Assembly (NCBI GenBank): GCA_964453605.1
Contig: CAYVOI010000001.1
Span: forward strand, 21,182-85,181
Direction: 5' to 3'
Source of the DNA: an uncultured Gammaproteobacteria bacterium
GTDB taxonomy: Bacteria; Patescibacteriota; Patescibacteriia; Veblenbacterales; UBA10138
DNA: 64,000 nucleotides
The position numbers were made by a program, and so were the translations under genes. The notes beneath the pieces were generated by a model. The model had not been told where the DNA came from. It was given only the letters and a program-made list of their open reading frames with translations, and did not search any database. The first letter of the stretch is position 1; each line of letters opens with the position of its first letter. Of the stretch, positions 3,783-64,000 are shown one piece after another.

Positions 3783-4277
3783 CTATGTCTCTACAACTTT
3801 CACTTCGTACGTTTCGCACGCCGAGGCGTCATCATTAAAGTAAAACTCGGCCTCGAGTTTTTTACCTTGGAGCACCTGTGGCAACCACAGCGGATCGTCC
3901 ACCCACATGTCAGCATAAGGAACATCACCAAGCGCAAACCACTGCGGTTTCATTTCTTCGCTTTCAACTGGCTCACCCTGCCAACGACGTAAGAGATACA
4001 CGTGGACTTCTTGGTTAAAGCTTGCGTCATGTTTAAAGTAGAACTGAAGCACGGCAACTTTTTCTAAGTCTGGTGCGGCTGCCGTAACACCACTTTCCTC
4101 TTGCAGCTCACGAAGCATCGCCTGTTCCAATGTCTCACCCGGCTGTACCTTGCCGCCGTACCCATTCCACTTACCTACCCCAAATCCACGCTTCTTCATA
4201 GCTAAGAGAAGTTCACCGGGGCGCACCAGGAAGCAGAGTGTCACTTGCCTGAGTGCCGCGTTAGCCATGAACCCCAA
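3783..4277 (-). CDS. NUDIX hydrolase (MutT-like)
   Basis: Nudix box GKWNGYGGKVQPGETLEQAMLRELQEESGV. Confidence 0.8.
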   Translation of the reverse strand: MGFMANAALRQVTLCFLVRPGELLLAMKKRGFGVGKWNGYGGKVQPGETLEQAMLRELQEESGVTAAAPDLEKVAVLQFYFKHDASFNQEVHVYLLRRWQGEPVESEEMKPQWFALGDVPYADMWVDDPLWLPQVLQGKKLEAEFYFNDDASACETYEVKVVET

Positions 4278-7611: not shown

Positions 7612-7687
7612 TGGTGGACCCAAGGAGACTCGAACTCCTGGCCTCTTCCATGCCATGGAAGCGCTCTACCAGCTGAGCTATGGGCCC
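7612..7687 (-). tRNA. tRNA-Ala(GGC), CCA encoded
   Basis: Manual cloverleaf fold: GGGCCCATAGCTCAGCTGGTAGAGCGCTTCCATGGCATGGAAGAGGCCAGGAGTTCGAGTCTCCTTGGGTCCACCA. Carries the G3:U70 Ala identity pair; anticodon GGC. Confidence 0.9.
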
Positions 7688-7756
7688 TGAAGTATGGGCC
7701 TAACCCAACTTCAGGGCAAGCCCAAAACCACTAAAAATCTATTAATAAGCAGAAGG

Positions 7757-7786
7757 TATTATATCGGCCTGAATAGCCTACGTCAA
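7757..7786 (-). promoter_or_regulatory. Near-consensus sigma70 promoter driving tRNA-Ala(GGC)
   Basis: Minus strand reads TTGACG, 17 nt, TATAAT. The predicted TSS is about 60 nt upstream of the tRNA 5' end. Confidence 0.6.
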
Positions 7787-7797
7787 CGCCCTATATT

Positions 7798-8585
7798 TTA
7801 CCTTTGTTCCACATGGAACATTTCTCCCAAAGAGTCCTTAATTAGATAAAAAGGGAAAGCTATGGTTGCAACCAAAATTCTCAAAAACCGCCTTGGCTCA
7901 ACTAATAATCTCCAAACCCATTCCAAACCCATTTTCCTAAATACCACGGGAGCCCTTTTTCTCTTCCCAGCAAAGTAATCAAATGTACCACCAACCCCTA
8001 TACCTACTTTTACCGGAAGTTGCGGCAAGTAGTAGTTAAGCCAAAGCTCTTGTTTGGGGTGGCCAAAACCAACTAAAAGTATGTCGGGTTTTTTTAATAT
8101 GATGTCATTAATTAGTCTCTGATTCTCCTGGCTTGTAAGCGGAAACTGGTCTTTTTCAGAAAAAATAGGACCAGTATCAAATCCAGAAATGTTAATTTTT
8201 GCGTATTTTAAGGTAAAATATTGTGTCGCTTTTTGTAAATCAGTATTACCAATAAAGTACAGGGAATACTCCTTAGCCACTGATTCTTGGACTAAAAGAC
8301 TAACCAAATCCACGCCAGTAACCCTCCCTTTTACGATTGGGGTTTTTGATAGGTAAGAAGCTAGGATCACACCTGTACCGTCCGGAGCCACTAAACTCGC
8401 CCGCTCTAAAATGGCCCGGTACTGAGGGTGCTGGCGGGCGTAAACTAATATCTCCGGGTTTGCGGTAACTACCAATTGCTTTTGGGGTAGACGAAGTGCG
8501 GCCTGAATAAGGTCGGCGGCCCCCCGCAAACCAGGATCGGCTATGGTTACACCAAAAGCTTTGTACATAAGGCGAGGTCTCCAGT
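7798..8585 (-). CDS. WecB/TagA/CpsF-family glycosyltransferase (UDP-N-acetyl-D-mannosaminuronic acid / ManNAc transferase family)
   Basis: Family-typical blocks FIGNTD...LVGFGHPKQELW...GVGGTFDYFAG. The start is ambiguous: ATG at 8583-8585 (MLNW...) or 8559-8561 (MYKAF...). The longer track ORF to 8790 looks like an N-terminal over-extension. Confidence 0.75.
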
Positions 8586-8674
8586 TTAGCATTTTGGATC
8601 CCTTTTGTGCTTCAATACAAGCAATTTTGCGAGTTTTCTTGAATCTGAGCCTCAAAAGAAGATATAATTTCAAT

Positions 8675-9178
8675 ATGGCTACAAAAGATGAACTCGAACA
8701 AAAACCCCTATTCCGTTTTGCAAAAGTTCTTTTTTCCCTGTCAGCCTTTATTGTTGCCACCCTAACAGTGTTTGTCTGGTACGGCGTCAAATCAAAGGAC
8801 TATGATACCAGTCGGTCATATTTCGTCTGCAATTCGTTCACTACACAACATGGGCTGACTGACGACGAAAAAGAGACTCTCAAAGTCTCTCAACCGCCTG
8901 CGTTTAATGCTGGCTCAGCAGCCCAAACACGTATAAACCAGGTGTGCTACCAAGAATATAGCGGTGGAAAGGATGCTGCTACACAGGCCAACATTGATTC
9001 TTTTCGTGCATTTCAGAGTGGCCCAGATGGACGAGTTTATACAATTCAAGGGACAAAAACATCAGATGATTGGCACTGGGACGGGCTGCTGATTGCCCTT
9101 GCTGTTGAGTACCTTGTCTTTTGGTTCCTAAAGCAAGCCGGCTTATACATTGCTGGCGGTAGAGACGCGTTGAAATAA
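8675..9178 (+). CDS. Hypothetical protein with N- and C-terminal TM helices, AT-rich
   Basis: ATG at 8675 (MATKDELEQ...). The upstream part of the track ORF overlaps the tagA-like gene on the opposite strand. Composition is low-GC. Confidence 0.5.
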   Translation: MATKDELEQKPLFRFAKVLFSLSAFIVATLTVFVWYGVKSKDYDTSRSYFVCNSFTTQHGLTDDEKETLKVSQPPAFNAGSAAQTRINQVCYQEYSGGKDAATQANIDSFRAFQSGPDGRVYTIQGTKTSDDWHWDGLLIALAVEYLVFWFLKQAGLYIAGGRDALK

Positions 9179-9245
9179 GCACATTTTATCGCTTCTGCGA
9201 GTAGAGTGATGATTCCCCATTGAGCAGTGGGGTGCTTTGGCCCTG

Positions 9246-9319
9246 TGGTGGACCCAGGGAGAATCGAACTCCCGCCTGCGCAATGCGAATGCGCTGTAAT
9301 ACCACTTTACTATGGGCCC
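9246..9319 (-). tRNA. tRNA-Ala(CGC), CCA encoded
   Basis: GGGCCCATAGTAAAGTGGTATTACAGCGCATTCGCATTGCGCAGGCGGGAGTTCGATTCTCCCTGGGTCCACCA. G3:U70 pair; anticodon CGC. Confidence 0.85.
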
Positions 9320-9497
9320 ACCACAGAGCCAACCTTTAGGCTACCAACTCCGACGAGCCTGCTGTCGGAGCCCCGACTTAGGCGTCGGGGCTGAGCTACT
9401 GGCCCCTGAAGTATGGGCCTCGCCCAACTCCAGGGCGAGCCTTTACTAAACTAGCATGCTCTGGCTGTGCCATAAACTGGCCCGAAGGCCTAAGGCC

Positions 9498-9572
9498 TGG
9501 TGCCCCCGGCAGGAATCGAACCTACATCTATCCCTTAGGACGGGACTGTTCTATCCATTGAACTACAGGGGC
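9498..9572 (-). tRNA. tRNA-Arg(CCT), CCA encoded
   Basis: GCCCCTGTAGTTCAATGGATAGAACAGTCCCGTCCTAAGGGATAGATGTAGGTTCGATTCCTGCCGGGGGCACCA. Acceptor GCCCCTG pairs with CGGGGGC; anticodon loop is GTCCTAA. Confidence 0.85.
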
Positions 9573-41225: not shown

Positions 41226-41312
41226 CGGAGAGGGAGGGATTCGAACCCTCGATAACCTTTCGGCTATACAGGTTTTCGAGACCTGCGCCTTCAACCACTC
41301 GGCCACCTCTCC
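41226..41312 (-). tRNA. tRNA-Ser(CGA), long variable arm, no encoded CCA
   Basis: GGAGAGGTGGCCGAGTGGTTGAAGGCGCAGGTCTCGAAAACCTGTATAGCCGAAAGGTTATCGAGGGTTCGAATCCCTCCCTCTCCG. Confidence 0.85.
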
Positions 41313-41368
41313 GTGAGCTCTACATCGTTTGTAGAGCGTTCACAGTATACGAACGGGGACTAGCTGTG

Positions 41369-42775
41369 TCAATGTAGGTCTGCTAGGACTGCAGTTAGTC
41401 TGTGGGGCACGAGGTTCAGCTTCCAAAGTGCGCCAAGGTACAACACTGCGCCCACTACTAGTTTGCCTACTAAGGGTAGTGGCAGTAGCAGCCCGAGGGC
41501 TAGCACCAGTGTGGCCAGTCCGATCTTCGGCCAACGAGCAGTAGAGAGTTTGAGTCCACGTCGCCAGAGAATGCTGAGCATAGCTAAGTTCACCGCCACC
41601 TCAAGCGCGACCGTGACCCAAGCCGCGCCCCAGTACGAGTAGCGTGGAATAAAGACCAGGTACCCCACTACCCCCCCGAGCGCCCCCCAGGCAAACACCG
41701 GTATGTTGCTCCGCTGGTACCCGAGCGCAAAAATGGCGTAGCCCGCAGCATTGCCGACGAATGAGGCTAGAATGGCGAGGCTGAGGATAGCTAGTATGTC
41801 ACCTGACACGGTAAAGTTAGCCCCAGCTATGGCGCCAATGAGCGAGTGGCCAACCAGCACCGAGCCCACTACCACAGCTAGCCCGGCAGCAAGCAAAGTG
41901 TCAGCTGCACCGATGTAGAGTGCTCGTATGGCGCCATGGTCCTGTTGCGTTTGGGCTTTTGCCAAGAGCGGGAGCAGCAGCCCACCGATAATGGCAGGCA
42001 GAGCCAAGAGCGCTTCGAGCATGCTGTAGGCTACACCGTAGAGCCCAACCTCGGCTGCTGGCCGCACTAGTGACAGCACCACCGTATCTCCCTTGAAGTA
42101 GATAACGTTTAGGGTAGTGGTCAGCGCCACTGGCCAGGTGGCGCGCCAGAGTTCAGCCCAGACCGCGGAGTCAATCCGCCAACCAAAGGGTACTAGGCGG
42201 CGGGCGGCCACCAAGTTCACCGCGGTAATGGTTAGATTGGCCACGATGAGTACAAGGAGGTACGCAGTGGGATTAGCCTTACCACTCCAGGCTACTGCCA
42301 TAGTGCCGCCTAGGAGGAGTGCGCGGCTGCCAAGTTCAAGCCAGGCTAGTGTAGTGCTCCTGAGCTTAGCCTGGTATATGCTGGTGAGCATTTGCCCAAT
42401 GCACGCGGCCCAAAACGCTACGGTGGTGAGCGTGATGCCGGACACTATAACGCTAGGGTACCCTAAGATCACCGCTACCAGTGGTGCCATAGCAAAGGCA
42501 GCGGTGGCTGTGGTTACGCGAAAGCTTAGGGCGTTACTGAGTAGTACCTCGGGCGGCAGTTTGCCGCTCCCCAGTTCCCGCGACACCGTCATGCTAAACC
42601 CTAAGCCCACGAGCAGTGCCACCAGCTGCAGGAACGCTACCACGGTGGTGTACTGGCCATAGCCAGCGGGACCTAAGGTCCTCGTCATCAGTCCCACTAC
42701 CACAATGCCTACAGCGAGGCTGACGGCACGGCTCATGAGCTGAATGCTGGTTTGGCGAGCAAGAACGTTGAACAT
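41369..42775 (-). CDS. Oligosaccharide/lipid-II flippase-family protein (Wzx/MurJ-like MOP superfamily), about 14 TM
   Basis: Polysaccharide-biosynthesis-protein-like polytopic architecture. Start ATG at 42773-42775 (MFNVLARQ). Confidence 0.6.
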   Translation of the reverse strand: MFNVLARQTSIQLMSRAVSLAVGIVVVGLMTRTLGPAGYGQYTTVVAFLQLVALLVGLGFSMTVSRELGSGKLPPEVLLSNALSFRVTTATAAFAMAPLVAVILGYPSVIVSGITLTTVAFWAACIGQMLTSIYQAKLRSTTLAWLELGSRALLLGGTMAVAWSGKANPTAYLLVLIVANLTITAVNLVAARRLVPFGWRIDSAVWAELWRATWPVALTTTLNVIYFKGDTVVLSLVRPAAEVGLYGVAYSMLEALLALPAIIGGLLLPLLAKAQTQQDHGAIRALYIGAADTLLAAGLAVVVGSVLVGHSLIGAIAGANFTVSGDILAILSLAILASFVGNAAGYAIFALGYQRSNIPVFAWGALGGVVGYLVFIPRYSYWGAAWVTVALEVAVNLAMLSILWRRGLKLSTARWPKIGLATLVLALGLLLPLPLVGKLVVGAVLYLGALWKLNLVPHRLTAVLADLH

Positions 42776-42782
42776 AGTGCGG

Positions 42783-43112
42783 TTAGGTTGTGTTGCTGGT
42801 CGGGTGCCAGAGGTAGCGGGTGAGGTCAACCCCAAAATTACCATCGCGTCCGCTGACCTCAACACCTTCGGCCGTAAGCAGTGCGGCTTGCTCCTCTTTT
42901 GTAGCGCGCCTGTTTTCAATCGAGATCATGCCCTCACGGTTGACTACCCGTTGCCAGGGGACATCTGCGGGACAAACGTTCAGGGCCCAGCCCACCAGCC
43001 GCGCCCCGCGTGGTTTGCCTAACAGTGCTGCCACTTGGCCGTAGGTTGCAACTTTGCCTTGTGGAATGGCACGCACCAGCTGGTAGACTGCTTGGTAAAA
43101 ATCATTCCCCAT
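42783..43112 (-). CDS. Alkyltransferase-like protein (ATL; O6-alkylguanine-DNA alkyltransferase DNA-binding-domain homologue without the catalytic Cys)
   Basis: Helix-turn-helix YGQVAALLG, followed by VPWQRVV where Ogt/Ada proteins have PCHRV. Trp replaces the acceptor Cys, as in ATL proteins. Confidence 0.7.
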   Translation of the reverse strand: MGNDFYQAVYQLVRAIPQGKVATYGQVAALLGKPRGARLVGWALNVCPADVPWQRVVNREGMISIENRRATKEEQAALLTAEGVEVSGRDGNFGVDLTRYLWHPTSNTT

Positions 43113-43167
43113 TAACCGTAAGTATAGCAAACCCCCGCCTTTTGAGGCGGAGGCAGCGTGCGTTCAG

Positions 43168-43238
43168 AGCGGGTAGCGGGAGTCGAACCCGCCTCATCAG
43201 CTTGGAAAGCTGAGGTAATACCGCTATACCATACCCGC
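43168..43238 (-). tRNA. tRNA-Gly(TCC), no encoded CCA
   Basis: GCGGGTATGGTATAGCGGTATTACCTCAGCTTTCCAAGCTGATGAGGCGGGTTCGACTCCCGCTACCCGCT. Confidence 0.8.
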
Positions 43239-43240
43239 TC

Positions 43241-43450
43241 TCAGGGCACGCGCTTGCCAGAGGTGGTGCCGTGCAGAGCGTTTTCTTTTTTCGCCAGGTC
43301 TACTCTCAGCGCTTGCCAGAACCCGCCCTGGCTCGGCGGCGTATTAGTAGAGAGCACTTGGTTGTAGAGCCAGAGCCCGTAGATGGTAGCCATGGCCAGT
43401 ACGGTGGCGAGGAGTACAAGTACGGTGTCACGGCCGCGGTGTTCCAGCAT
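43241..43450 (-). CDS. Possible small membrane protein (69 aa)
   Basis: One TM helix, tightly packed between the secreted-protein gene and tRNA-Gly. Weak support. Confidence 0.3.
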   Translation of the reverse strand: MLEHRGRDTVLVLLATVLAMATIYGLWLYNQVLSTNTPPSQGGFWQALRVDLAKKENALHGTTSGKRVP

Positions 43451-43455
43451 AGGCT

Positions 43456-43851
43456 CTAGCGAACTCCCCTAGGCTTGGCTGGGTTCGTGCGCGTGAGGGC
43501 GATGTTTACCCTGCCCGTCAGGATGTCGATGCGTGCAGCGGTGATGATGTCGCCCTCTCTAACCCCCGTTACCTTGAGGTACTGCTTGAGCCTTAAGCTT
43601 TTGGCGCTCACCTGTTTTTTGCCGAGCCAAATTTGGGTTTGGTCATCTACCAACACAGGGTCATCAACTTGTCGCTTCCCCTCGGGGTGGATGATGGTGA
43701 CAATTTGCCCACTAATACCGGTTACCTTGCCGCGCGGTACAACTACCGTGTAGCTGCTTCCCGCCGTGTCAGTAGGTAGCTGGGCATAGGCTGGGCTCAG
43801 GCCCTGCAGCAGTAGCACGGTGCTTAGGGCAAGTGTACTATAGAGTTTCAT
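43456..43851 (-). CDS. Hypothetical secreted protein (131 aa) with an N-terminal signal peptide
   Basis: MKLYSTLALSTVLLLQGLSPAYA signal, then a beta-rich region. Confidence 0.5.
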   Translation of the reverse strand: MKLYSTLALSTVLLLQGLSPAYAQLPTDTAGSSYTVVVPRGKVTGISGQIVTIIHPEGKRQVDDPVLVDDQTQIWLGKKQVSAKSLRLKQYLKVTGVREGDIITAARIDILTGRVNIALTRTNPAKPRGVR

Positions 43852-43947
43852 ACGAACGTTCGTTAGGAGTGACTATGGTGCCGAGGGCCACCCCGAAGTG
43901 GAGCTAAGCTCACTTCGGGGCAGGGAATCGGACACTACTCTACAGTG

Positions 43948-44019
43948 TGCCTGGGGTCAGAATCGAACTGACGACGCCAGCCTCTTCAGGGCTGCGCTCT
44001 ACCACTGAGCTACCCAGGC
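43948..44019 (-). tRNA. tRNA-Phe(GAA), no encoded CCA
   Basis: GCCTGGGTAGCTCAGTGGTAGAGCGCAGCCCTGAAGAGGCTGGCGTCGTCAGTTCGATTCTGACCCCAGGCA. Confidence 0.85.
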
Positions 44020-44113
44020 ACACTGTAGAGTATGATTGTTGTGAAATGTCTACTACTGCGCTAACGCCGTGCTCCTTGCCCCGTAGGGAACGAGCCTAAG
44101 CGAGTTCTCCTTC

Positions 44114-44137
44114 GGGGTACCACTGAGCTACCTCGGC
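44114..44137 (-). other. Truncated tRNA 5' fragment (acceptor plus D-arm only) upstream of tRNA-Phe
   Basis: Minus strand reads GCCGAGGTAGCTCAGTGGTA, then diverges into an unrelated hairpin. Compare the tRNA-Phe 5' end GCCTGGGTAGCTCAGTGGTAGAGC. Confidence 0.5.
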
Positions 44138-44148
44138 CTGTGGAAGTA

Positions 44149-44490
44149 TTAGCGATAAATAACTGAAATGATAAAGGCAATAACAATGAGCGGGAAGGCG
44201 ATGAGTGTACCACGTTCTGGCAGCTCGCGGAAGAACACGTAGTTGAGTATTGGTTCCGCTACGAGGATCGAGGCCATCGAAGCAATGCTGACAATCCAAA
44301 TTTTTTCAAAGCTCCGGTAGCCTAGGCCATACCCCACGAGCAGTAGTACGCCCGATACCAGGAATACACCGAGTAGGGCAGCGAGGTCGCGTGCCGCAAT
44401 GCCGTGCTTACCTTGGCGCGCCTGCATGAGCTCGGCGCTAATAGCTACTGCTTCGCCCACAAAAATGCTAAATACAGCAATGAGTTTCAT
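44149..44490 (-). CDS. Small polytopic membrane protein (113 aa, 4 TM)
   Basis: Start ATG at 44488-44490 (MKLIAVFS). The track's upstream extension overlaps tRNA-Pro. Confidence 0.5.
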   Translation of the reverse strand: MKLIAVFSIFVGEAVAISAELMQARQGKHGIAARDLAALLGVFLVSGVLLLVGYGLGYRSFEKIWIVSIASMASILVAEPILNYVFFRELPERGTLIAFPLIVIAFIISVIYR

Positions 44491-44592
44491 GGTTCGTATT
44501 GTTAATCGTCGGGGTACTGGGGTTTGTCGCCCCTTCGGGAGATCACCCGTAGGGTGAAACCCAGGACCTGCCCGTAGAATTTTGGTCGGGGA

Positions 44593-44668
44593 TGCGAGAC
44601 TCGAACTCGCGACCTCCTGCTCCCAAAGCAGGCGCGCTACCAACTGCGCTAATCCCCGGTAGGGTTTA
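44593..44668 (-). tRNA. tRNA-Pro(TGG), CCA encoded
   Basis: CGGGGATTAGCGCAGTTGGTAGCGCGCCTGCTTTGGGAGCAGGAGGTCGCGAGTTCGAGTCTCGCATCCCCGACCA. Confidence 0.85.
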
Positions 44669-44917
44669 CGGACCGCGCTAGCCAGCTGCGCGCTATACCC
44701 GGGTGGTGTGCCCCTCGACTACGCTCGGGGCATTCGCCTCGTCCATGGTTTACCATGAGCGAGCGGAGCGAGTCGAATGGTGGGTCGGGTGGGACTCTGT
44801 CCTGGGCAGCGCCGAATGTTGCGCTTGCTCACATTCGGCGGATGCTCCCCCGCCCTTCCCGAAGGACGAGGTCGCTCCTGCCCTTCTCGTCCCCCTACCT
44901 ATCACCTTGGTGGGTCG

Positions 44918-44993
44918 GGTGGGACTCGAACCCACGACCAATTGCTTAAGAGGCAACTGCTCTACCAGCTGAGCTACCGACCCATGAAGTATG
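44918..44993 (-). tRNA. tRNA-Lys(CTT), CCA encoded
   Basis: GGGTCGGTAGCTCAGCTGGTAGAGCAGTTGCCTCTTAAGCAATTGGTCGTGGGTTCGAGTCCCACCCGACCCACCA. Confidence 0.85.
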
Positions 44994-45075
44994 AACTCCG
45001 CTCAACTTCAGGGCAAGCCCTGAAGTTTGTGGCTGTGCCATGAACTCAAGCGAGCGTGTAGTTCATGGTGCCCCC

Positions 45076-45150
45076 GGAGGGATTCGAACCCCCAATAGCT
45101 GGTCCGAAGCCAGCCGTGATATCCATTTCACCACGAGGGCCGAAGCTTAC
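45076..45150 (-). tRNA. tRNA-Arg(TCG), CCA encoded
   Basis: GCCCTCGTGGTGAAATGGATATCACGGCTGGCTTCGGACCAGCTATTGGGGGTTCGAATCCCTCCGGGGGCACCA. Confidence 0.8.
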
Positions 45151-45240
45151 CGTAAGCTTGAGGGCTCACAAATTTAGCCCCCTCACCATAGCATAAACCC
45201 GCTCTCGGTTCAAGCCTACCGTGAGGTATGAGCAAAACCC

Positions 45241-46293
45241 TCAGTTTAAGGTTTCGGCTGACGTAACGTGGGAGAGTGCCGCCTCGCGGGTAATGGCACC
45301 TTCTTGGAGCAAGCGCTTGATGTGTTGGTCGATAGTAATCATGCCCTCTTCAGCGCTCGTTTGAATGACAGATTTTATCTGCGCGTGCTTGTTCTCACGG
45401 ATTAAGTTAGCCACCGCCGGGTTGTTGATGAGCAGCTCGCGGGCAGCCACCCGGCCACTGCCATCGGCCCTGGGCAGCAGTCGCTGTGAGATGACGGCTT
45501 TGAGCGAGAACGACAGCTGCAGCCGGACTTGGGTTTGCTGGTAGGGGGGGAAGACGTCGATAATGCGGTCAATGGTTTCCACGGCGTTGTTGGTGTGGAG
45601 GGTGGCGAGCACCAGGTGCCCAGTCTCCGCCAAGGTGAGCGTGGTGCTGATGGTGTCGAGGTCGCGCATTTCGCCAACCATAACTACGTCCGGGTCTTGC
45701 CGCAAGGTGTGCTTTAAACCCTCGGCAAATGAAGTTATGTCGGTCCCGAGTTGGCGCTGTTTGATGATGCTCTTGCCCCCAGGGAAAATAAATTCAATCG
45801 GGTCTTCCAGGGTAATAATGTTCACTGCCCGCTGCTGGTTGATGAGGTTGATCATGGCGGCAAGCGAGGTGGATTTACCAGCACCGGTGGGGCCGGTGAC
45901 CAGCACCAAGCCGTAGTCGAGCTGCGTCAGGCGGTAGACCACCTGGGGCATGGTGATGTCCTCTAGAGAGGGAATGGTGGTAGGAATAACGCGCGCTACC
46001 AGACCAATATTGTCTTTTTCGAAGTGCAGGTTAATACGGAACCGCGTACCGTCTTTTATTTGGTACGAGAGGTCAAGGTCCCGGCGCTCTAAGAACTGGG
46101 CGCGTTGCCCAGGCGCTAGAATCCCCAGCGCCAGGTCCTGGAGTTTTTTAGGAGTGAGCTCGGGGTAGCCCAAGGCCCTGAGGTCGCCGTGGAGCCGTAT
46201 GGTCGGAGGTTTGCCAACGGCCAGGTGTAAATCAGAGGCGCCTTGCTGGCTAGCTTCGTTGAACAGTACTTCGAGTGATGCTAATTCAGGCAT
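45241..46293 (-). CDS. pilT: Type IV pilus retraction ATPase PilT (twitching motility protein)
   Basis: Walker A GPTGAGKST, and the PilT-type N-terminal and His-box regions. Confidence 0.85.
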   Translation of the reverse strand: MPELASLEVLFNEASQQGASDLHLAVGKPPTIRLHGDLRALGYPELTPKKLQDLALGILAPGQRAQFLERRDLDLSYQIKDGTRFRINLHFEKDNIGLVARVIPTTIPSLEDITMPQVVYRLTQLDYGLVLVTGPTGAGKSTSLAAMINLINQQRAVNIITLEDPIEFIFPGGKSIIKQRQLGTDITSFAEGLKHTLRQDPDVVMVGEMRDLDTISTTLTLAETGHLVLATLHTNNAVETIDRIIDVFPPYQQTQVRLQLSFSLKAVISQRLLPRADGSGRVAARELLINNPAVANLIRENKHAQIKSVIQTSAEEGMITIDQHIKRLLQEGAITREAALSHVTSAETLN

Positions 46294-46325
46294 AGGTGTA
46301 CATAGGTAGCGTATGGGAGGCTGGG

Positions 46326-46700
46326 TCAGTTGTCAAAAGCCTCTGCCTCAGCGCCAAAGTACAGTTCGCGCAAACCCTCAATAATGAGTTTGGTCGGTGG
46401 CGCCGAACTAGCCTGCCCAGCGTAGAAGTACGGCCGCCCGCTGCCCAAAGCCCGCCGGCTCACGCGCCGACCTTTAGGGTCTATGTCTATACCATTAACG
46501 TGTATAGTCGGTGAGGCAAAGAACTGGTAGGCATGGGCTTGGTCCAGCGTGTCTATGGTAACAAGTCTCGGCTCTTCAGCCAGCCCAAGTTTTTTAAGCG
46601 CGGCTGCAAGGTTCTTGAGTGCCTCTGGCCAGGCACGGCAATCGCGGGTGTGGAGCAGCTCTATACCCTGGTTGGGTTCGTAGGTAGGTGTTGGTTGCAT
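46326..46700 (-). CDS. Hypothetical small protein, possibly thioredoxin-like fold
   Basis: 124 aa, no clear motif. Function unassigned. Confidence 0.4.
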   Translation of the reverse strand: MQPTPTYEPNQGIELLHTRDCRAWPEALKNLAAALKKLGLAEEPRLVTIDTLDQAHAYQFFASPTIHVNGIDIDPKGRRVSRRALGSGRPYFYAGQASSAPPTKLIIEGLRELYFGAEAEAFDN

Positions 46701-46712
46701 GGCGCGGCCGGC

Positions 46713-47738
46713 TTAAGGTTTGGCTTGGAGCGCCGCGGCAGTGTAGGTATTGTGGGGGTTCCAGAGCATCCAGCCGTTCGCAAAGCCAGCATCGGTTACA
46801 CCCTTGAACTCAGCGTGAACGAGGTCGGCAGTGTAGCGTGCGCCGAGGTTAAAGTCTTGCAGCCATGGCCGCACGATGGTGCGTGGCGTGGCGGCGAGCT
46901 GAGGCTTGCCCTGCTCTAGGGTTTGGCGCACTACCTCGTAGGGGTGCTCGGCTGGGTTGGTAAAGCCGAAGTTACCCGCGCGGTAGTGGGAGGGGTACAC
47001 CATGGGCGCTACCACGTCGAGCGTGGGTGCGAGCAGCCTAAGGTCTTGGCCTATGTTTAGGTGGTTGCGAGGTAAGAAGCTGTAGGCAAACACGTCGGCT
47101 GAGAGCACAGCCCCAGGGTGTGAAGCCTGGAGCTCGCGGTGGAGCCAGCCGACAAAGTCAGCTATGGTTTGCGCTTTGCTGACCTTGGGTTGCCAAATGG
47201 GGTAGTGAATGCTGCTCACCGCACCATCAGTAGGGAAGCGTACGTAGTCGAGGTTTACCTCGTCGAACCCGGCATCGAGTGCCGCCCGGGCCGCTTTAAG
47301 GTTGTACTCCCAGACTTCTCGCGAGCTGGCGTCCACCCACGTTTTGCCACCGCCGTCATGCCACACGCTGCCGTCGGCACGCTTCAGCGCCAGGTCGGGG
47401 CGGTGGCGTGCTAGGTCATCGTCCTGGAACACCACCTGCCGCGCAATGGTCCACATGCCCTGTGCCTTAAGCTCGGCCACCAGGTCTTTCACATGCTGAT
47501 CGAGTTTCACTCCCGAGGGTTCCTTGGTATTAATAACTATAGCGTTGAGCTCGGAGGAGGCAATTAACTGTTCTAAGTCTTTGATGTGTGCCGTGTGCGC
47601 GGTTGATGAAGTAGCGTAGATAGCTTTTACTACTGCCGGCATCGGCCGCCGTATCACGTGGGCCGCGGTGGGAGCTGGCTCGGGCTGAGGTAGCAGTTGG
47701 GTGGCGAGCAGGCTTAGAAGTGACAGCATTTTCAGCAT
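46713..47738 (-). CDS. Putative secreted TIM-barrel glycoside-hydrolase-like protein (DUF4015/GHL-type)
   Basis: Signal peptide and the NLDYVRFP motif typical of the putative glycoside-hydrolase DUF4015 family. Confidence 0.45.
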   Translation of the reverse strand: MLKMLSLLSLLATQLLPQPEPAPTAAHVIRRPMPAVVKAIYATSSTAHTAHIKDLEQLIASSELNAIVINTKEPSGVKLDQHVKDLVAELKAQGMWTIARQVVFQDDDLARHRPDLALKRADGSVWHDGGGKTWVDASSREVWEYNLKAARAALDAGFDEVNLDYVRFPTDGAVSSIHYPIWQPKVSKAQTIADFVGWLHRELQASHPGAVLSADVFAYSFLPRNHLNIGQDLRLLAPTLDVVAPMVYPSHYRAGNFGFTNPAEHPYEVVRQTLEQGKPQLAATPRTIVRPWLQDFNLGARYTADLVHAEFKGVTDAGFANGWMLWNPHNTYTAAALQAKP

Positions 47739-47787
47739 GTCAAAAGTGTACTATGGTTTGACACCCTTAGCTATCGCGTACTAAAAA

Positions 47788-47816
47788 AAGCGGGGCCCTT
47801 AGGCCCCGCTTGGGTA
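47788..47816. terminator. Bidirectional rho-independent terminator
   Basis: AAAAAAAGCGGGGCCCTTAGGCCCCGCTT: a perfect GC hairpin flanked by an A-run on one strand and a T-run on the other. Confidence 0.6.
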
Positions 47817-47821
47817 CTCTT

Positions 47822-48295
47822 CTAGCGTCCTGGGTCGTCGGCCGAGGGGCCGTAGATAGAAGGCACCTTGCCGCCGGCCATCCGGACGTACACCGAGAGC
47901 TGGCCGCGGTGGTGAATGTTGTCCCGGCTCATGCCCCACAGCCCATCCATAATCCTCTTTCCTGGGCCCCAGTCGGCAAAGGGCTGGTTCAGTTGTTCTT
48001 CAGACGTAGCGGCTATGGCAGCGCTGGTTTTAGTAAACGCGTCGTCATAGGCTTTGAGTATAGCGTCGAGCGTTGGCGGTACATCTTTAGGCAGGTTCAT
48101 CCAGTCCACCTTACCCGTTAGCATTTCTTCACTAGCTATTTCCTCTTTGGCAAAGTTGAACGCCAGCTCGCCGGCTGAGCGCGAGCGCTCGTGTGGCTTG
48201 AAGCTCAACTTATCAGCGGGGTACGCTTTCAACACCTTCATCGTAAGTTTGAACTCTTCCTGCCGTGAGGCAAGGAGCATATCTTTTTCTGACAT
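47822..48295 (-). CDS. DinB/YfiT-like (DinB_2) damage-inducible-family protein
   Basis: Four-helix-bundle DinB-superfamily pattern, including the conserved His (DNIHHRGQ). Start ATG at 48293-48295 (MSEKDML). Confidence 0.6.
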   Translation of the reverse strand: MSEKDMLLASRQEEFKLTMKVLKAYPADKLSFKPHERSRSAGELAFNFAKEEIASEEMLTGKVDWMNLPKDVPPTLDAILKAYDDAFTKTSAAIAATSEEQLNQPFADWGPGKRIMDGLWGMSRDNIHHRGQLSVYVRMAGGKVPSIYGPSADDPGR

Positions 48296-48374
48296 AGCTT
48301 TATAGTGCAGAATAGTTAGTGGGGTAAGTATAGCACAGAACACAAAACCCTCGTTTCAAGCGAGGGTTTTGTTA

Positions 48375-48449
48375 TGGGGTGACTAGAGGGAGTCGGACCC
48401 TCACTAAGGGCTCCACAAGCCCCTGTGCTACCGCTACACCATAGTCACC
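48375..48449 (-). tRNA. tRNA-His(GTG) with genome-encoded G-1 and CCA
   Basis: G-GTGACTATGGTGTAGCGGTAGCACAGGGGCTTGTGGAGCCCTTAGTGAGGGTCCGACTCCCTCTAGTCACCCCA. The extra 5' G pairs with C73. The T-loop is non-standard (TCCGACT). Confidence 0.75.
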
Positions 48450-48492
48450 ACGTGCGCACTCTCCTTATGAGAGCTGCCTTACGATAGCACAG

Positions 48493-49716
48493 CTAGTGGC
48501 TTGGTTCAAGCGTGAGTTTGGGCTGCTGGCTTAAGGCTTTTTCGGTAGCGTGATCAATAACCGATATCCAACTGTTGCCCGGGGCAAAGGCCAAGGGGTT
48601 GCCAGCAGCGTCGGTGAAGAGGAGTGGGTCACCGAGCGTGGGTTTAGACCAGCGACCTTCGAAGTGCTGCCCGTTGCGGAGCAGTATCGCCCTACCTGAA
48701 CCCAAGGTGGTAACAGTTACCTTTAGTAGTGGGTCGTTTGGTACAGGTACAATATCGGCTACCATGATAACCACATTTTTAGCCGTGAGCACGTTACCCG
48801 TGGCCCCATCCAGGTGTGGTTTGCCACCTACTGAACGTTCGTAGCTCTGTGAGGTTTGGTTCCAGTCGTAGCGTACGGCGTACTCTTTGGGGTCGTAGGG
48901 AATAGTGAAATTGGTAGCCTCTACTCCTTGAGCTGGCGTGGCGCCAAAGACAAACGGGATAAAGCCTTTAAAGTTTAGCCACTGGTGGGCTGTGATGTAG
49001 TCCCAAAATTTCTGCGCTCCCGTGAACAGGTTGTGGGGCGCTTTCTTACTCGCGTCACGTTCGTAGGCAGCGCCGTTAAAGAACTCGTTCACGTCTTGTA
49101 GGTTGCCGTACGGTTTTTTAAGCTGCTCCAATGCTTCCGTGCTCCCACCTGAGTGGCTGTAGAGCGCGCTAAAGTTAGCAGCCCAGTCGTTAAAGTACGC
49201 CCGGGCACTCCTCACCGGCCCCACGCGTTCTGGTAGCTCTGACTGGTACACAGCCATGAGCCGCGTTATGCCGGCCTCAGCCGGCGCCTCAAACACTACA
49301 TCGGCCTGTCCGAGGCCCACCTGTGGGCGTGAGGCCGCCAAGTTACTAATCATAACCGCCCAGGGACGTCGCGCGGCTAGCTCTGGGCTCACGGCTAGGC
49401 CAGTCAGAGGTGCCGTGGTGACAGGGGGTGTAGGTGTGGAGGGGGCCTCAGTTCTGGTTGTGCCGTACTGTGCCTGCAGTGAGAGTATGACGGCGCTCGA
49501 GCCAATGACCAGTACCCCTAAGGCCACCGCGCTCAGGTGTGCGAGCCACCACCAGTAGCGCCCATGCGCCTGCGGCGGGGTGCGAAAGTGTGCAGTCTTT
49601 GGTGCTAGGAGCTCAGCGTGAACTAGCCCCGTGTGCCGGCTTACCGTAGGACGGCGGGGTGCTCGTGGTTTTCTGGGGGTTGCGGCACGTTTGGTGGGTG
49701 TGTTTTTGGTTGGCAT
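48493..49716 (-). CDS. DUF3048 (YerB-like) secreted/lipoprotein-family protein
   Basis: AVMISNLAASRPQVGLGQADVVFEAPAEAGITRLMAVYQS matches the conserved DUF3048 N-domain. N-terminal basic/Pro-rich region plus a TM anchor. Confidence 0.55.
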   Translation of the reverse strand: MPTKNTPTKRAATPRKPRAPRRPTVSRHTGLVHAELLAPKTAHFRTPPQAHGRYWWWLAHLSAVALGVLVIGSSAVILSLQAQYGTTRTEAPSTPTPPVTTAPLTGLAVSPELAARRPWAVMISNLAASRPQVGLGQADVVFEAPAEAGITRLMAVYQSELPERVGPVRSARAYFNDWAANFSALYSHSGGSTEALEQLKKPYGNLQDVNEFFNGAAYERDASKKAPHNLFTGAQKFWDYITAHQWLNFKGFIPFVFGATPAQGVEATNFTIPYDPKEYAVRYDWNQTSQSYERSVGGKPHLDGATGNVLTAKNVVIMVADIVPVPNDPLLKVTVTTLGSGRAILLRNGQHFEGRWSKPTLGDPLLFTDAAGNPLAFAPGNSWISVIDHATEKALSQQPKLTLEPSH

Positions 49717-49810
49717 AGGTTTAGGTTTTAGAGGTTTTGTAGACGTAGCTTAGTATAGCAGCTCGGGCAAAATTTTTGAACTCTGGCGAACTATGGGCAG
49801 TTCACACCCT

Positions 49811-49882
49811 TGCCCCCGAGAGGAATCGAACCTCTATAACCGGCTTAGAAGTCCGGTGTTCTATCCATTGAACTACAGGGGC
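49811..49882 (-). tRNA. tRNA-Arg(TCT), no encoded CCA
   Basis: GCCCCTGTAGTTCAATGGATAGAACACCGGACTTCTAAGCCGGTTATAGAGGTTCGATTCCTCTCGGGGGCA. Confidence 0.85.
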
Positions 49883-61621: not shown

Positions 61622-62154
61622 ACCTAAAATTTTAAGCTTCTTGGGAATAAGTGGTAGTTCCGTGCTCAGGGTGAGGGCGTGTGCGCTATAGCGTACCGGT
61701 GGTGGTCAGCGTACCTGCTCTGCACTCTGCTTAACGTATATACGAGCGTTTGTTAGGCTACCATGTTTAGCACACTACGGTCAACGCGTTTACATGGTTC
61801 TGCCGAGCGCAAAATGCGTTTGAATTTGGGTTCCCGAGGTGCTAGCATACCCCAAGGGCATTACCCCATTTTTTCTTGACCTAAACAAGCTGAGCTATGC
61901 CCGGATATACAACTTCGCTAGCGCCCGCCCCGCACCAGAGCGGAGCACGGTACGGGGCTTCGCCTCGTACTACTACCGTGGTATTGGTGCAAGAGGGAGC
62001 AACGGCAGTACCCAATAAGTCCGGGCTCTTGGTGCGTGGGCTCGTTCCGACCACTATATTCACAAGTTTATGTTTTTCCTAAGGTACTTTAATCGTAAGC
62101 AGGCTCCCGTCCATCCTCGCGCTGAGGTGGGTACGCCTCGTTGATATACCGGGT

Positions 62155-64000
62155 ATGGCGCGGTACGACCACAAGGGAGTAGAGCAGAAGTGGCAAAAAT
62201 TTTGGCACGACGGTGCAACGTGGCAGGCTGCGGAAAAACCAGGCGCAAAAAAGTCCTACGTGCTCGACATGTTCCCGTACCCTTCGGCGGCCGGTCTCCA
62301 TGTTGGCCACCCCGAGGGCTACACTGCTACCGACATCTACTGCCGCTACTTGCGCATGAAGGGTGTGAACGTTTTACATCCTATGGGCTGGGACGCGTTT
62401 GGTTTGCCAGCCGAAAACTATGCTATCAAAACCGGCCGGCACCCCAAGGAGGTCACGTGGGAGAACATTGCAAACTTTAGGCGGCAGATACAGTCACTTG
62501 GCTTTTCCTACGACTGGAGCCGCGAGGTGAACACGGCCGACCCTTCCTATTATAAGTGGACGCAGTGGTTGTTCCTGAAGCTCTACGAGAAGGGCTTGGC
62601 CTACCGCAAAGAAGCGCCGGCGAACTGGTGCCCCAACGATCAAACTGTGCTGGCCAATGAGCAAGTGGTAGAAGGTTGCTGCGAGCGCTGCGGCGCTAAA
62701 GTGGAACAGCGCAACATGCAACAGTGGTTTTTTAAGACCACAGCTTACGCCGATGCCCTCCTCAATGATTTGGAAGGTTTGGATTGGCCAGTGCCGATTG
62801 TGGAAATGCAGAAGAACTGGATAGGGAAGAGTGAGGGGGCAGAGGTGGAATTCGTTTTACATTTTAAGAAGCACTCGGCAGATAATGATCGACGTGGTCC
62901 TGATGGTAAGCCGGCGCATTTGACTGTGTTTACCACCCGGCTCGACACTATTTTTGGTGCGACGTATTTGGTTTTAGCACCTGAACATCCGTGGGTGAGG
63001 TTAGCGACAGATGATAATCATGATGTCCTGTTAAATAAAGAAGAGGTCAGGGCATACATCGAGCTGACAAAAAAGAAATCAGAACTGCAGCGCGCGCAAT
63101 TGCAAAAAGAAAAGACCGGCGTTGAGTTAAGGGGTGTTAAGGCCGTAAACCCAGCAACTAAAGAAGAAATCCCGGTGTGGGTGGCGGACTACGTGCTCGG
63201 CAGCTACGGTACGGGTGCCATTATGGCCGTACCCGCGCACGATGAGCGGGATTTAGAATTTGCATTCGCACATAATCTACCGGCCAAAACAGTTGTTGTG
63301 CCAAAGAATGCAAATTGTGTAGTTGTGCATGGCTGTCCTAACTACGCTGAAGATAACCCCGACAAGAGTACATACGACAAGCACTGGATGAAGTGGCTGG
63401 GCAGAGAATTGTCTAAATTAGGAATAGTGGGAAGTTTCCCTGTCATGCCCACGCCCTGGGAGCCGAACTATGAGGCTTGGAAGAAGGAGTTTGAGAAGAA
63501 TAAAATTGACGAAAACAGTATTCTCATTGGCCACAGCTGTGGCTGCGCTTTTTTGGCGCGGTGGTTGGCGGAGACTAAAGAGGTAGTTAAACATTTAATT
63601 TTCGTAGCGCCCTGGAAAGTTGCTGATGCCAGCATGAGCCAACAAAAGGTTGATTGGTATAGTCATGATATTGATAAGTCGATAAGGTTTCGCGCCAAGT
63701 ATATGACTATTTTTACTTCAGATGACGAAGAGCTAGGCGGGAAACAAAGTGCCGCTCTCTTTGAAGAAGCGTGGGGCATTGAACCTATACTATTACACAA
63801 GCACGGCCATTATACTTTGAATGATATGGGAACTGAGGAGTTCCCCGAGCTTCTTTCTGCTATATTAAATACTTTTGTTGGCAGTATCGAAGAAGGTGTA
63901 CTAGTGCAATCAGCTGATTTTAATTGGTTAACTTCTGTTGAGGCGAAGGTACGGATCGCAAAAAAAATCGGCGCTGAGCTTAAAACACAATATCGCCTCA
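62155..64000 (+). CDS. leuS: Leucine--tRNA ligase, 5' partial. The CDS continues past the window end and carries an in-frame alpha/beta-hydrolase-like domain insertion.
   Basis: Translated by hand from ATG 62155 to the window end with no stop codons. HIGH region HVGHPEGY; editing-domain motifs TVFTTRLDT and [15 protein letters not shown]. An inserted segment with GHSCG follows, then LeuS sequence resumes at KTQYRL (compare E. coli KVNYRLRDWG). Confidence 0.85.

Follow-up and report, generated by a model that had tools for sequence, protein, structure and literature searches.

A YdeN/RBBP9-type serine hydrolase domain nested in the CP1 editing domain of a Patescibacteria leucyl-tRNA synthetase

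Introduction

Aminoacyl-tRNA synthetases (aaRS) with accessory domains are already known, such as ProRS with its INS domain, and free-standing trans-editing factors (YbaK, ProXp, AlaX and DTD) have also been described. An additional enzymatic domain is joined to a class I synthetase in the IleRS that carries a GNAT N-acetyltransferase domain, which is a curated exception in NCBIfam (NF040702). Here we analysed leuS, the gene of leucine--tRNA ligase (LeuS, or LeuRS), in a stretch of 64,000 nt from contig CAYVOI010000001.1 of a Patescibacteria genome (hereafter, the window). Like the IleRS, this LeuS contains a second enzyme. Unlike in the IleRS, the additional domain is an alpha/beta hydrolase, and it is nested in the CP1 editing domain rather than appended.

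The inserted domain has the lid-less alpha/beta-hydrolase fold of about 190 aa found in YdeN (1uxo) and RBBP9 (2qs9, 7oex). RBBP9 is a serine aminopeptidase for aromatic residues that needs a free alpha-amine on its aminoacyl substrate (PMC8866121), and the YdeN relative ML-005 is a short-chain (C4) esterase whose triad was proven by mutagenesis (PMC6119806). In contrast to these free-standing proteins, the domain described here is nested in another enzyme. It is only 20-22% identical to YdeN and RBBP9, and it has the signature of a Patescibacteria sub-family, which consists of HGCP, GHSCGC, an acid that is Glu instead of Asp, and numerous Trp and Pro residues that do not vary.

Literature searches found no account of a LeuRS that contains a nested hydrolase or NUDIX domain, nor of Patescibacteria proteins with other domains nested in them. 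The database entries of such LeuS are annotated merely as leucine--tRNA ligase, and NCBIfam holds no model for the LeuS-hydrolase architecture or for the free-standing protein. What appears to be new is an apparently intact alpha/beta hydrolase nested in the CP1 domain of a bacterial LeuRS.

Results

The hydrolase is part of a single leuS open frame

The part of leuS within the window (Table 1) was translated and gave a single open frame of 615 codons with no stops or frame changes, as an earlier note made from the sequence alone had read it. The first 615 residues of P0001, a 1013-aa database protein from an 876 kb NCBI contig, were 100% identical to the window leuS. Moreover, an independent read assembly from Logan (L001, SRR12313480, 5.1 kb) was base-for-base identical to the window across 1846 nt, and in this assembly a Sua5/YrdC gene follows leuS. 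Downstream of the insert, LeuS continued in frame for 435 more residues, including KMSKS, the anticodon-binding domain and the C-terminal domain. The two assemblies are identical and the same architecture recurs in dozens of divergent Patescibacteria LeuS (see below), confirming that the hydrolase nested in LeuS is a genuine architecture and no assembly artefact. The concern that two genes had been joined by the assembly was thus contradicted.

The host protein is a bacterial LeuRS with the class I motifs. A Pfam scan of the fragment gave the class I catalytic core, the PF13603 editing domain and PF06821 (Ser_hydrolase). Full-length P0001 scored 1009.9 bits with TIGR00396 (leuS_bact), against a cut-off of 548.4, and the window fragment alone scored 547.1 bits, marginally below the cut-off because it is truncated. 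The class I motifs of P0001, HVGH (HIGH) at aa 49-52 and KMSKS at aa 781-785, were invariant in an alignment of 69 sequences. With HIGH, KMSKS and the CP1 motifs present, the protein is like canonical LeuRS of E. coli (4aq7/4arc) and T. thermophilus (2bte/1obc). The LeuRS body of the full-length AlphaFold model superposed on these two enzymes with a template-modelling score (TMt) of 0.82-0.86. The score TMq of the same superposition was merely 0.71-0.74, because the insert has no counterpart in any solved LeuRS.

The possibility of an internal gene expressed separately was tried and rejected. There were no stops, and promoter-like and terminator-like matches within the insert did not exceed the shuffle expectation.

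The leader of leuS (window 61622-62154) was unusually long, with 530 nt untranslated, and a search of Rfam found no T-box or other Rfam element in it. A short open reading frame in this leader, 'MLAYPKGITPFF...' (especially 61839-61880), resembles the N-terminal extension 'MLAYKGEHTPFF' annotated on P0013. The likeness points to conservation of an upstream element, in DNA or RNA, that may be a promoter region.

The nested domain looks like a complete hydrolase

The PF06821 profile matched aa 408-566 (profile positions 11-166 of 172) with 58.6-61.5 bits against a cut-off of 22 (E=1.2e-16). Among sequences in the PDB, the best match of the insert was B. subtilis YdeN (1uxo, E=3e-9), and human RBBP9 was found with E=8e-4. 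The insert was also modelled alone (AlphaFold2, 46 homologues in the alignment), giving a predicted local distance difference test score (pLDDT) of 88.4. When this model was used in Foldseek, the top matches were 1uxo, 2qs9, 7oex, 9fcr and 3bdv, followed by generic esterases and thioesterases. The template-modelling scores were 0.80/0.84 for YdeN and 0.75/0.79 for RBBP9. The assignment of the segment to an in-frame serine hydrolase of the RBBP9/YdeN type, proposed by the earlier note, is borne out by both the profile search and the fold.

As in YdeN and RBBP9, the nucleophile elbow of the insert is GHSxG, the acid follows the sixth strand, and the histidine lies distally in a GH motif. The conservation of the predicted triad was examined in 197 homologous copies. 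The position of Ser461 was Ser in every copy that covers it, in all host classes (one truncated copy was gapped there), that of His552 was His in 197 of 197, and position 525 was E or D in 193 of the 197. A one-residue alignment ambiguity exists at the acid (Glu525 versus Asp523/524); Glu525 is most likely the catalytic acid, the adjacent Asp523/524 being less likely. The GHSxG elbow and the later His that had first been noticed were both found, but the acid between them is most likely this Glu and not an Asp. In addition, 35 positions did not vary in a set of 46 free-standing homologues, and all but one of them (34) are retained by the embedded copy. With the fold confirmed by structure prediction, and with Ser461/Glu525/His552 aligned to the RBBP9 residues, the nested domain looks like a complete, apparently active hydrolase whose predicted triad is intact.

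No Pfam, NCBIfam or fold match to the known trans-editing or deacylase families (YbaK/ProX, AlaX and DTD) was found, and scans with the insert gave alpha/beta hydrolases only. Unlike those families, to which Pfam and NCBIfam scans show no sequence relationship, the insert is a member of PF06821.

Four conserved Cys residues (aa 388, 394, 462 and 464; ~63316-63546) lie in the C..HGCP and GHSCGC motifs of the Patescibacteria sub-family. This cluster adjoins the oxyanion-hole and nucleophile-elbow motifs in sequence, and most of these Cys are missing from YdeN and RBBP9. A redox or metal role might be considered for them.

The domain replaces a hairpin loop inside CP1

The PF13603 profile matched aa 220-387 at profile positions 1-146 of 185 (E=2e-51). 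Between the end of the HDxRD motif (aa 366) and the insert (aa 383) there are 16 further LeuS residues. The insert point falls at position 146 of the 185 in the profile. A further ~47 residues of CP1 lie on its C-terminal side. The insert is thus inside CP1, not at its C-terminal edge as had been thought. Its end had been placed at 63920, with LeuS resuming at SADFNWL, which overshot by about 10 codons; LeuS in fact resumes at aa 579 and the insert ends at 63888. Alignment with orthologues mapped the insertion between residues 362 and 379 of T. thermophilus LeuRS, where the alignment is interrupted and a hairpin loop of ~16-18 residues is exchanged for an enzyme of 196 residues. In this the window protein departs from canonical LeuRS, as no domain is present at this place in any solved LeuRS.

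The full-length AlphaFold model had a pLDDT of 91.4 and a predicted template-modelling score (pTM) of 0.83. At the N-junction of this model, a linker of 3 residues connects LeuS strand 381-383 to hydrolase strand 387-393. At the C-junction, hydrolase helix 564-574 is followed by ~6 residues and then by LeuS strand 581-583, which pairs with strand 381-383. As modelled, the insertion point is the tip of a beta-hairpin in CP1. The CP1 motifs FTTRxDT and GTG...HDxRD were intact here and in all 29 hydrolase-bearing LeuS examined, indicating that the insert has not substituted canonical editing.

P0143, a divergent LeuS with the hydrolase at site C (Table 1), has a degenerate Thr-rich motif (FSAHFEAF versus FTTRPDT). 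By its sequence, it is the sole case seen in which a hydrolase insert stands alongside a CP1 site that is possibly impaired.

A near-identical direct repeat of 10 nt was observed at the N-junction (63292-63301, GTTGTTGTGC; 63319-63328, GTAGTTGTGC). It codes for 'VVV' strands, one in LeuS and one in the hydrolase, and could be insertion-site microhomology or a chance match.

Two explanations in terms of known elements were tried and rejected. For an intein, there was no Hint/intein Pfam match, the junction residues vary (PKNANC, PKDINC and PKERKV on one side; ...IEE and ...INE, each followed by G, on the other), and the +1 residue is Gly. For a mobile element, the 10-nt microhomology at the N-junction was the sole flanking repeat.

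Table 1. Features of leuS in the window, and sites at which LeuS proteins carry nested hydrolases
Feature	Window position	Strand	Remarks
leuS, leucine--tRNA ligase, 5' 615 codons	62155..64000	+	runs past window end; full product 1013 aa
CP1 editing domain, N-terminal part, aa 220-382	62812..63300	+	PF13603; Thr-rich and HDxRD motifs
CP1 Thr-rich motif FTTRLDT	62929-62949	+	motif present
CP1 GTG...HDxRD motif, aa 352-366	63208-63252	+	motif present
YdeN/RBBP9-family alpha/beta serine hydrolase domain, aa 383-578	63301..63888	+	PF06821, AlphaFold, Foldseek
Ser461 codon AGC, predicted nucleophile, GHSCGC elbow	63535..63537	+	aligns with RBBP9 Ser75
Glu525 codon GAA, probable catalytic acid	63727..63729	+	aligns with RBBP9 Asp138
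His552 codon CAT, predicted catalytic histidine, GH motif	63808..63810	+	aligns with the His of RBBP9 'GHF'
CP1 editing domain, C-terminal part, aa 579-615 (...KTQYRL)	63889..64000	+	aligns with T. thermophilus LeuRS from 379; window end cuts domain
LeuS site A			loop of the window insert (T. thermophilus 362-379), in CP1
LeuS site A2			immediately ahead of YKLRDW; P0121
LeuS site B			between GAEVxF and TTRxDT
LeuS site C			linker preceding CP1; P0143
LeuS site D			past the HCxxC knuckle of the catalytic core, outside CP1; P0008, P0095

The closest relatives are free-standing Patescibacteria proteins

A phmmer search with the insert only gave 1108 relatives, and the best 120 were examined in a second search. 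Nearly all of these 120 were free-standing PF06821 proteins of ~190 aa with 51-57% identity to the insert, and some were fused to NUDIX. The named free-standing relatives came from Giovannonibacteria, Lloydbacteria, Buchananbacteria and 'Patescibacteria group', with a few labelled Nanoarchaeota. The LeuS insert at the same site in P0002 had 48% identity, below the free-standing relatives, and the closest LeuS-embedded copy, that of P0008 (57% identity), lies at a different LeuS site. Because free-standing Patescibacteria proteins are the closest to the insert, the donor would be a resident gene family and no exotic source; nothing in these sequence relationships appears to indicate a foreign donor. 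No second copy of the hydrolase was found within the 64 kb window, and the gene neighbourhood of one free-standing homologue (cupin, NDK and PRTase) gave no functional clue.

Nested hydrolases recur at other sites and in other hosts

Nested domains were surveyed in the 120 LeuS proteins nearest to that of the window; every named one is from Patescibacteria. An alpha/beta hydrolase was present in ~37 and a NUDIX domain in ~37 (two had both), one had a HAD domain, and the rest had no recognisable insert. In all, one or more nested domains of the hydrolase superfamilies (alpha/beta, NUDIX or HAD) were present in ~60% of the 120. The hydrolase was found at the same site as in the window in 12 full-length and several partial LeuS (45-55% identity), and hydrolases occupied at least five LeuS sites (A, A2, B, C and D; Table 1). 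The inserts at site B and some of those at site A belong to a second hydrolase sub-group (group I).

In the loop equivalent to 63301-63888, NUDIX inserts were observed in P0011, P0013, P0026 and others, and a HAD insert in P0083. P0019 and P0110 each carry two enzymes in one LeuS, an alpha/beta hydrolase at site B and a NUDIX domain (PF00293) at site A. These sister LeuS are like the window LeuS in having the same host, the same or neighbouring loops, small 'housecleaning-type' folds, and inserts that come from resident free-standing genes. The NUDIX and HAD inserts differ from the window hydrolase in both fold and chemistry. The best relatives of the NUDIX insert were free-standing Patescibacteria NUDIX proteins of ~160 aa, with up to 65% identity. 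The NUDIX half of the free hydrolase-NUDIX fusions was most similar to the site-A insert of P0013, the LeuS whose backbone is closest to that of the window.

Two 157-aa free-standing NUDIX proteins, P0417 and P0418, carry the NCBI name 'leuS [Parcubacteria group bacterium]'. This label looks like an annotation transfer from LeuS with a nested NUDIX. The P0013-type NUDIX insert also matched the window weakly (E=2e-5) at ~4038-4175 on the minus strand, where the same genome probably has a free-standing NUDIX gene.

Hosts of the hydrolase are not confined to LeuS. The same hydrolase sub-clade was found nested in UvrB (P0179), in the Der/EngA GTPase (P0183) and in a GT2 glycosyltransferase (P0129), and it was fused to a YdjC-like domain (P0198) and to NUDIX. 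A ValRS (P0215) carries two tandem copies, which lie outside CP1. The copies in the UvrB, Der, GT2, ValRS, YdjC and NUDIX hosts all retain Ser and His. The UvrB host is a normal gene beside uvrC on a 12.6 kb contig (L086 505-2895). Judged from these sequences, nesting in unrelated housekeeping proteins looks like a general 'nested hydrolase' habit of Patescibacteria genomes.

In the neighbour-joining tree of the hydrolase domain, free copies and those from LeuS-A, LeuS-B, LeuS-C, UvrB, Der, GT2 and NUDIX fusions were interleaved. In the tree of the LeuS backbone, the insert states were interleaved down to sister pairs. Nested inserts would thus have been gained, lost and swapped frequently.

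leuS is a mosaic around CP1

The insert had been described as visibly AT-richer (40-45% GC) than its flanks and, from this, as a horizontally acquired domain. The guanine plus cytosine (GC) content of the insert was indeed low, at 0.444, the 5th percentile of the window when 588-nt windows are compared. But the trough spans CP1 and later parts of leuS as well, since the CP1 flanks had 0.489 and 0.454 and aa 701-850 had 0.44-0.48. The GC content at third codon positions (GC3) was 0.70 in the first 196 codons and dropped to 0.43-0.54 over CP1 and the insert.

Sliding-window identity divided the gene between two groups of relatives. Aa 1-225 and aa >585 were closer by 0.1-0.33 to the P0011/P0013/P0016 group, and aa 226-326 were closer by 0.24-0.29 to the P0036/P0023/P0026 group, with which this block shares characteristic indels. 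The mosaic block (LeuS aa ~226-330) corresponds to window 62830-63130, where GC3 falls from 0.70 to ~0.5. By these comparisons, leuS is a recombinational mosaic around CP1, and the AT-rich signal would be due to the exchange of a CP1-centred block rather than the acquisition of the hydrolase alone. A sharp compositional island as evidence of horizontal transfer was rejected in favour of a broad low-GC trough with a CP1 mosaic. The part of the claim that concerned foreign origin found little support, given the breadth of the trough, the larger size of the exchanged block and the nearest relatives, which are resident Patescibacteria genes.

Discussion

We consider it moderately probable that a permissive CP1 loop took up a resident hydrolase gene, whose product serves as an independent enzyme with LeuRS as its carrier and not primarily as a dedicated proofreading module. 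The donor would have been one of the free-standing ~190-aa hydrolase genes, a family with many members in Patescibacteria. In the window leuS, the captured domain would adjoin, or fall within, the CP1 block that was exchanged between LeuS lineages. The synthetic and editing motifs of LeuRS are kept in the sequence, and so are the hydrolase triad and the family signature. Both enzymes of the chain would fold and act independently, and the nested hydrolase would perform the reaction of its free-standing relatives. By analogy with RBBP9 and ML-005, it would most plausibly hydrolyse a substrate that is small and soluble, either an ester or of aminoacyl type. LeuRS would mainly be a permissive and constitutively expressed carrier. 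A passenger is preferred over a proofreading helper because the same family is also free-standing and nested in unrelated proteins. The NUDIX and HAD domains of sister LeuS suggest that the CP1 loop is a general landing pad.

Several points weigh against this capture reading. LeuS is strongly over-represented among the hosts, with ~10 of the 19 multidomain representatives in the insert-only search. Four of the five LeuS sites are in CP1 or at its boundary, and a second editing synthetase, ValRS, is also among the hosts. Such enrichment could reflect functional synergy with aminoacyl-tRNA handling, or structural permissiveness. The group that RBBP9 recognises is an aminoacyl with a free alpha-amine (PMC8866121), and aminoacyl-tRNA presents exactly such a group. 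Moreover, the activities known in the family are those of RBBP9 (PMC8866121) and ML-005 (PMC6119806), which are distant relatives and not Patescibacteria members, and the trees were built by neighbour-joining on protein distances only.

A helper in editing, as the earlier note had suggested for an esterase fold beside the editing site, appears rather unlikely to us. The hydrolase would then be a cis-acting auxiliary deacylase on CP1, which extends LeuRS proofreading by hydrolysing an aminoacyl ester or anhydride on which CP1 works poorly. Mischarged or D-aminoacyl-tRNA-Leu and non-cognate aminoacyl-adenylate are candidate substrates, and the free-standing relatives would be trans-editing factors. 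The position of the domain fits this idea, as it lies in the editing domain 17 residues past the HDERD motif, and insertions in and around CP1 (sites A, A2, B and C) have been repeated and independent. LeuS is the commonest host and ValRS is another, the triad is strictly conserved, the known requirement of RBBP9 for a free alpha-amine on an aminoacyl substrate (PMC8866121) would suit such a role, and P0143 combines a hydrolase at site C with a degenerate Thr-rich CP1 motif. However, the same lineage occurs in UvrB, Der, GT2 and the YdjC fusion, at LeuS site D, and in ValRS outside CP1. The same loop also accommodates NUDIX and HAD, which by their chemistry, that of pyrophosphatases and phosphatases, do not suit the editing of esters, and all 29 hydrolase-bearing LeuS that were examined keep the residues for CP1 editing. 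In addition, many close LeuS relatives have no insert at all, and at the family-invariant positions the embedded copy has no change that would point to a new specificity.

A bolder version of this idea is, in our estimate, quite unlikely. The YdeN/RBBP9-type hydrolase of Patescibacteria, free and nested, would be an unrecognised aminoacyl-ester hydrolase acting on aminoacyl-tRNA or aminoacyl-adenylate. Its capture by LeuRS CP1 and by ValRS would have created a second proofreading site in cis, and the NUDIX and HAD domains would be synthetase-tethered 'clean-up' enzymes (for Ap4A and adenylates). If it were true that the hydrolase acts on aminoacyl-tRNA, it would represent a new family of editing factors.

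It is improbable that the domain is a selfish or neutral mobile one. In such a case, small hydrolase genes (YdeN-like, NUDIX and HAD) would spread in-frame into tolerant loops of essential genes and persist because excision is difficult, with no benefit for the host protein. The many hosts and sites, the interleaved insert states on the LeuS tree, the mosaic leuS and the 10-nt microhomology at the N-junction would all be expected from it. But the catalytic and family-invariant residues are strongly conserved in the embedded copies, which argues for selection on enzymatic function. No terminal repeats, associated transposase or endonuclease, or intein signatures were found, and copies in different hosts are just 35-57% identical, which argues against recent mobility.

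We regard a catalytically dead structural or regulatory appendage, such as an additional tRNA- or protein-binding surface on CP1, as very improbable. The embedded copy has diverged somewhat, with a mean identity of 53% to free copies compared with 67% among free copies, and it has lost 11 of the 44 positions with >=90% conservation. On the other hand, Ser461, His552 and the acid at 525 are kept here and in essentially all embedded copies, and the window copy has 34 of the 35 invariant positions. Finally, an assembly or annotation artefact that fused leuS with a separate hydrolase gene is practically out of the question, for it has only the modest GC dip in its favour and is opposed by a frame without stops or shifts in which LeuS continues for 435 residues past the insert, by the same sequence in an independent read assembly, and by the presence of this architecture in dozens of divergent metagenomic LeuS (NCBI, JGI, ENA and Logan).

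These findings bear on how ultra-small genomes package accessory enzymes into essential proteins. They also bear on the tolerance of CP1 for large insertions, a matter for LeuRS engineering and for drugs that target the editing site, and on annotation, given the free NUDIX proteins that are mislabelled 'leuS'.

Other features of the window

Eleven tRNA genes were observed in the window, all on the minus strand. They form two clusters, one at window 41226-49882 and the other at 7615-9572.

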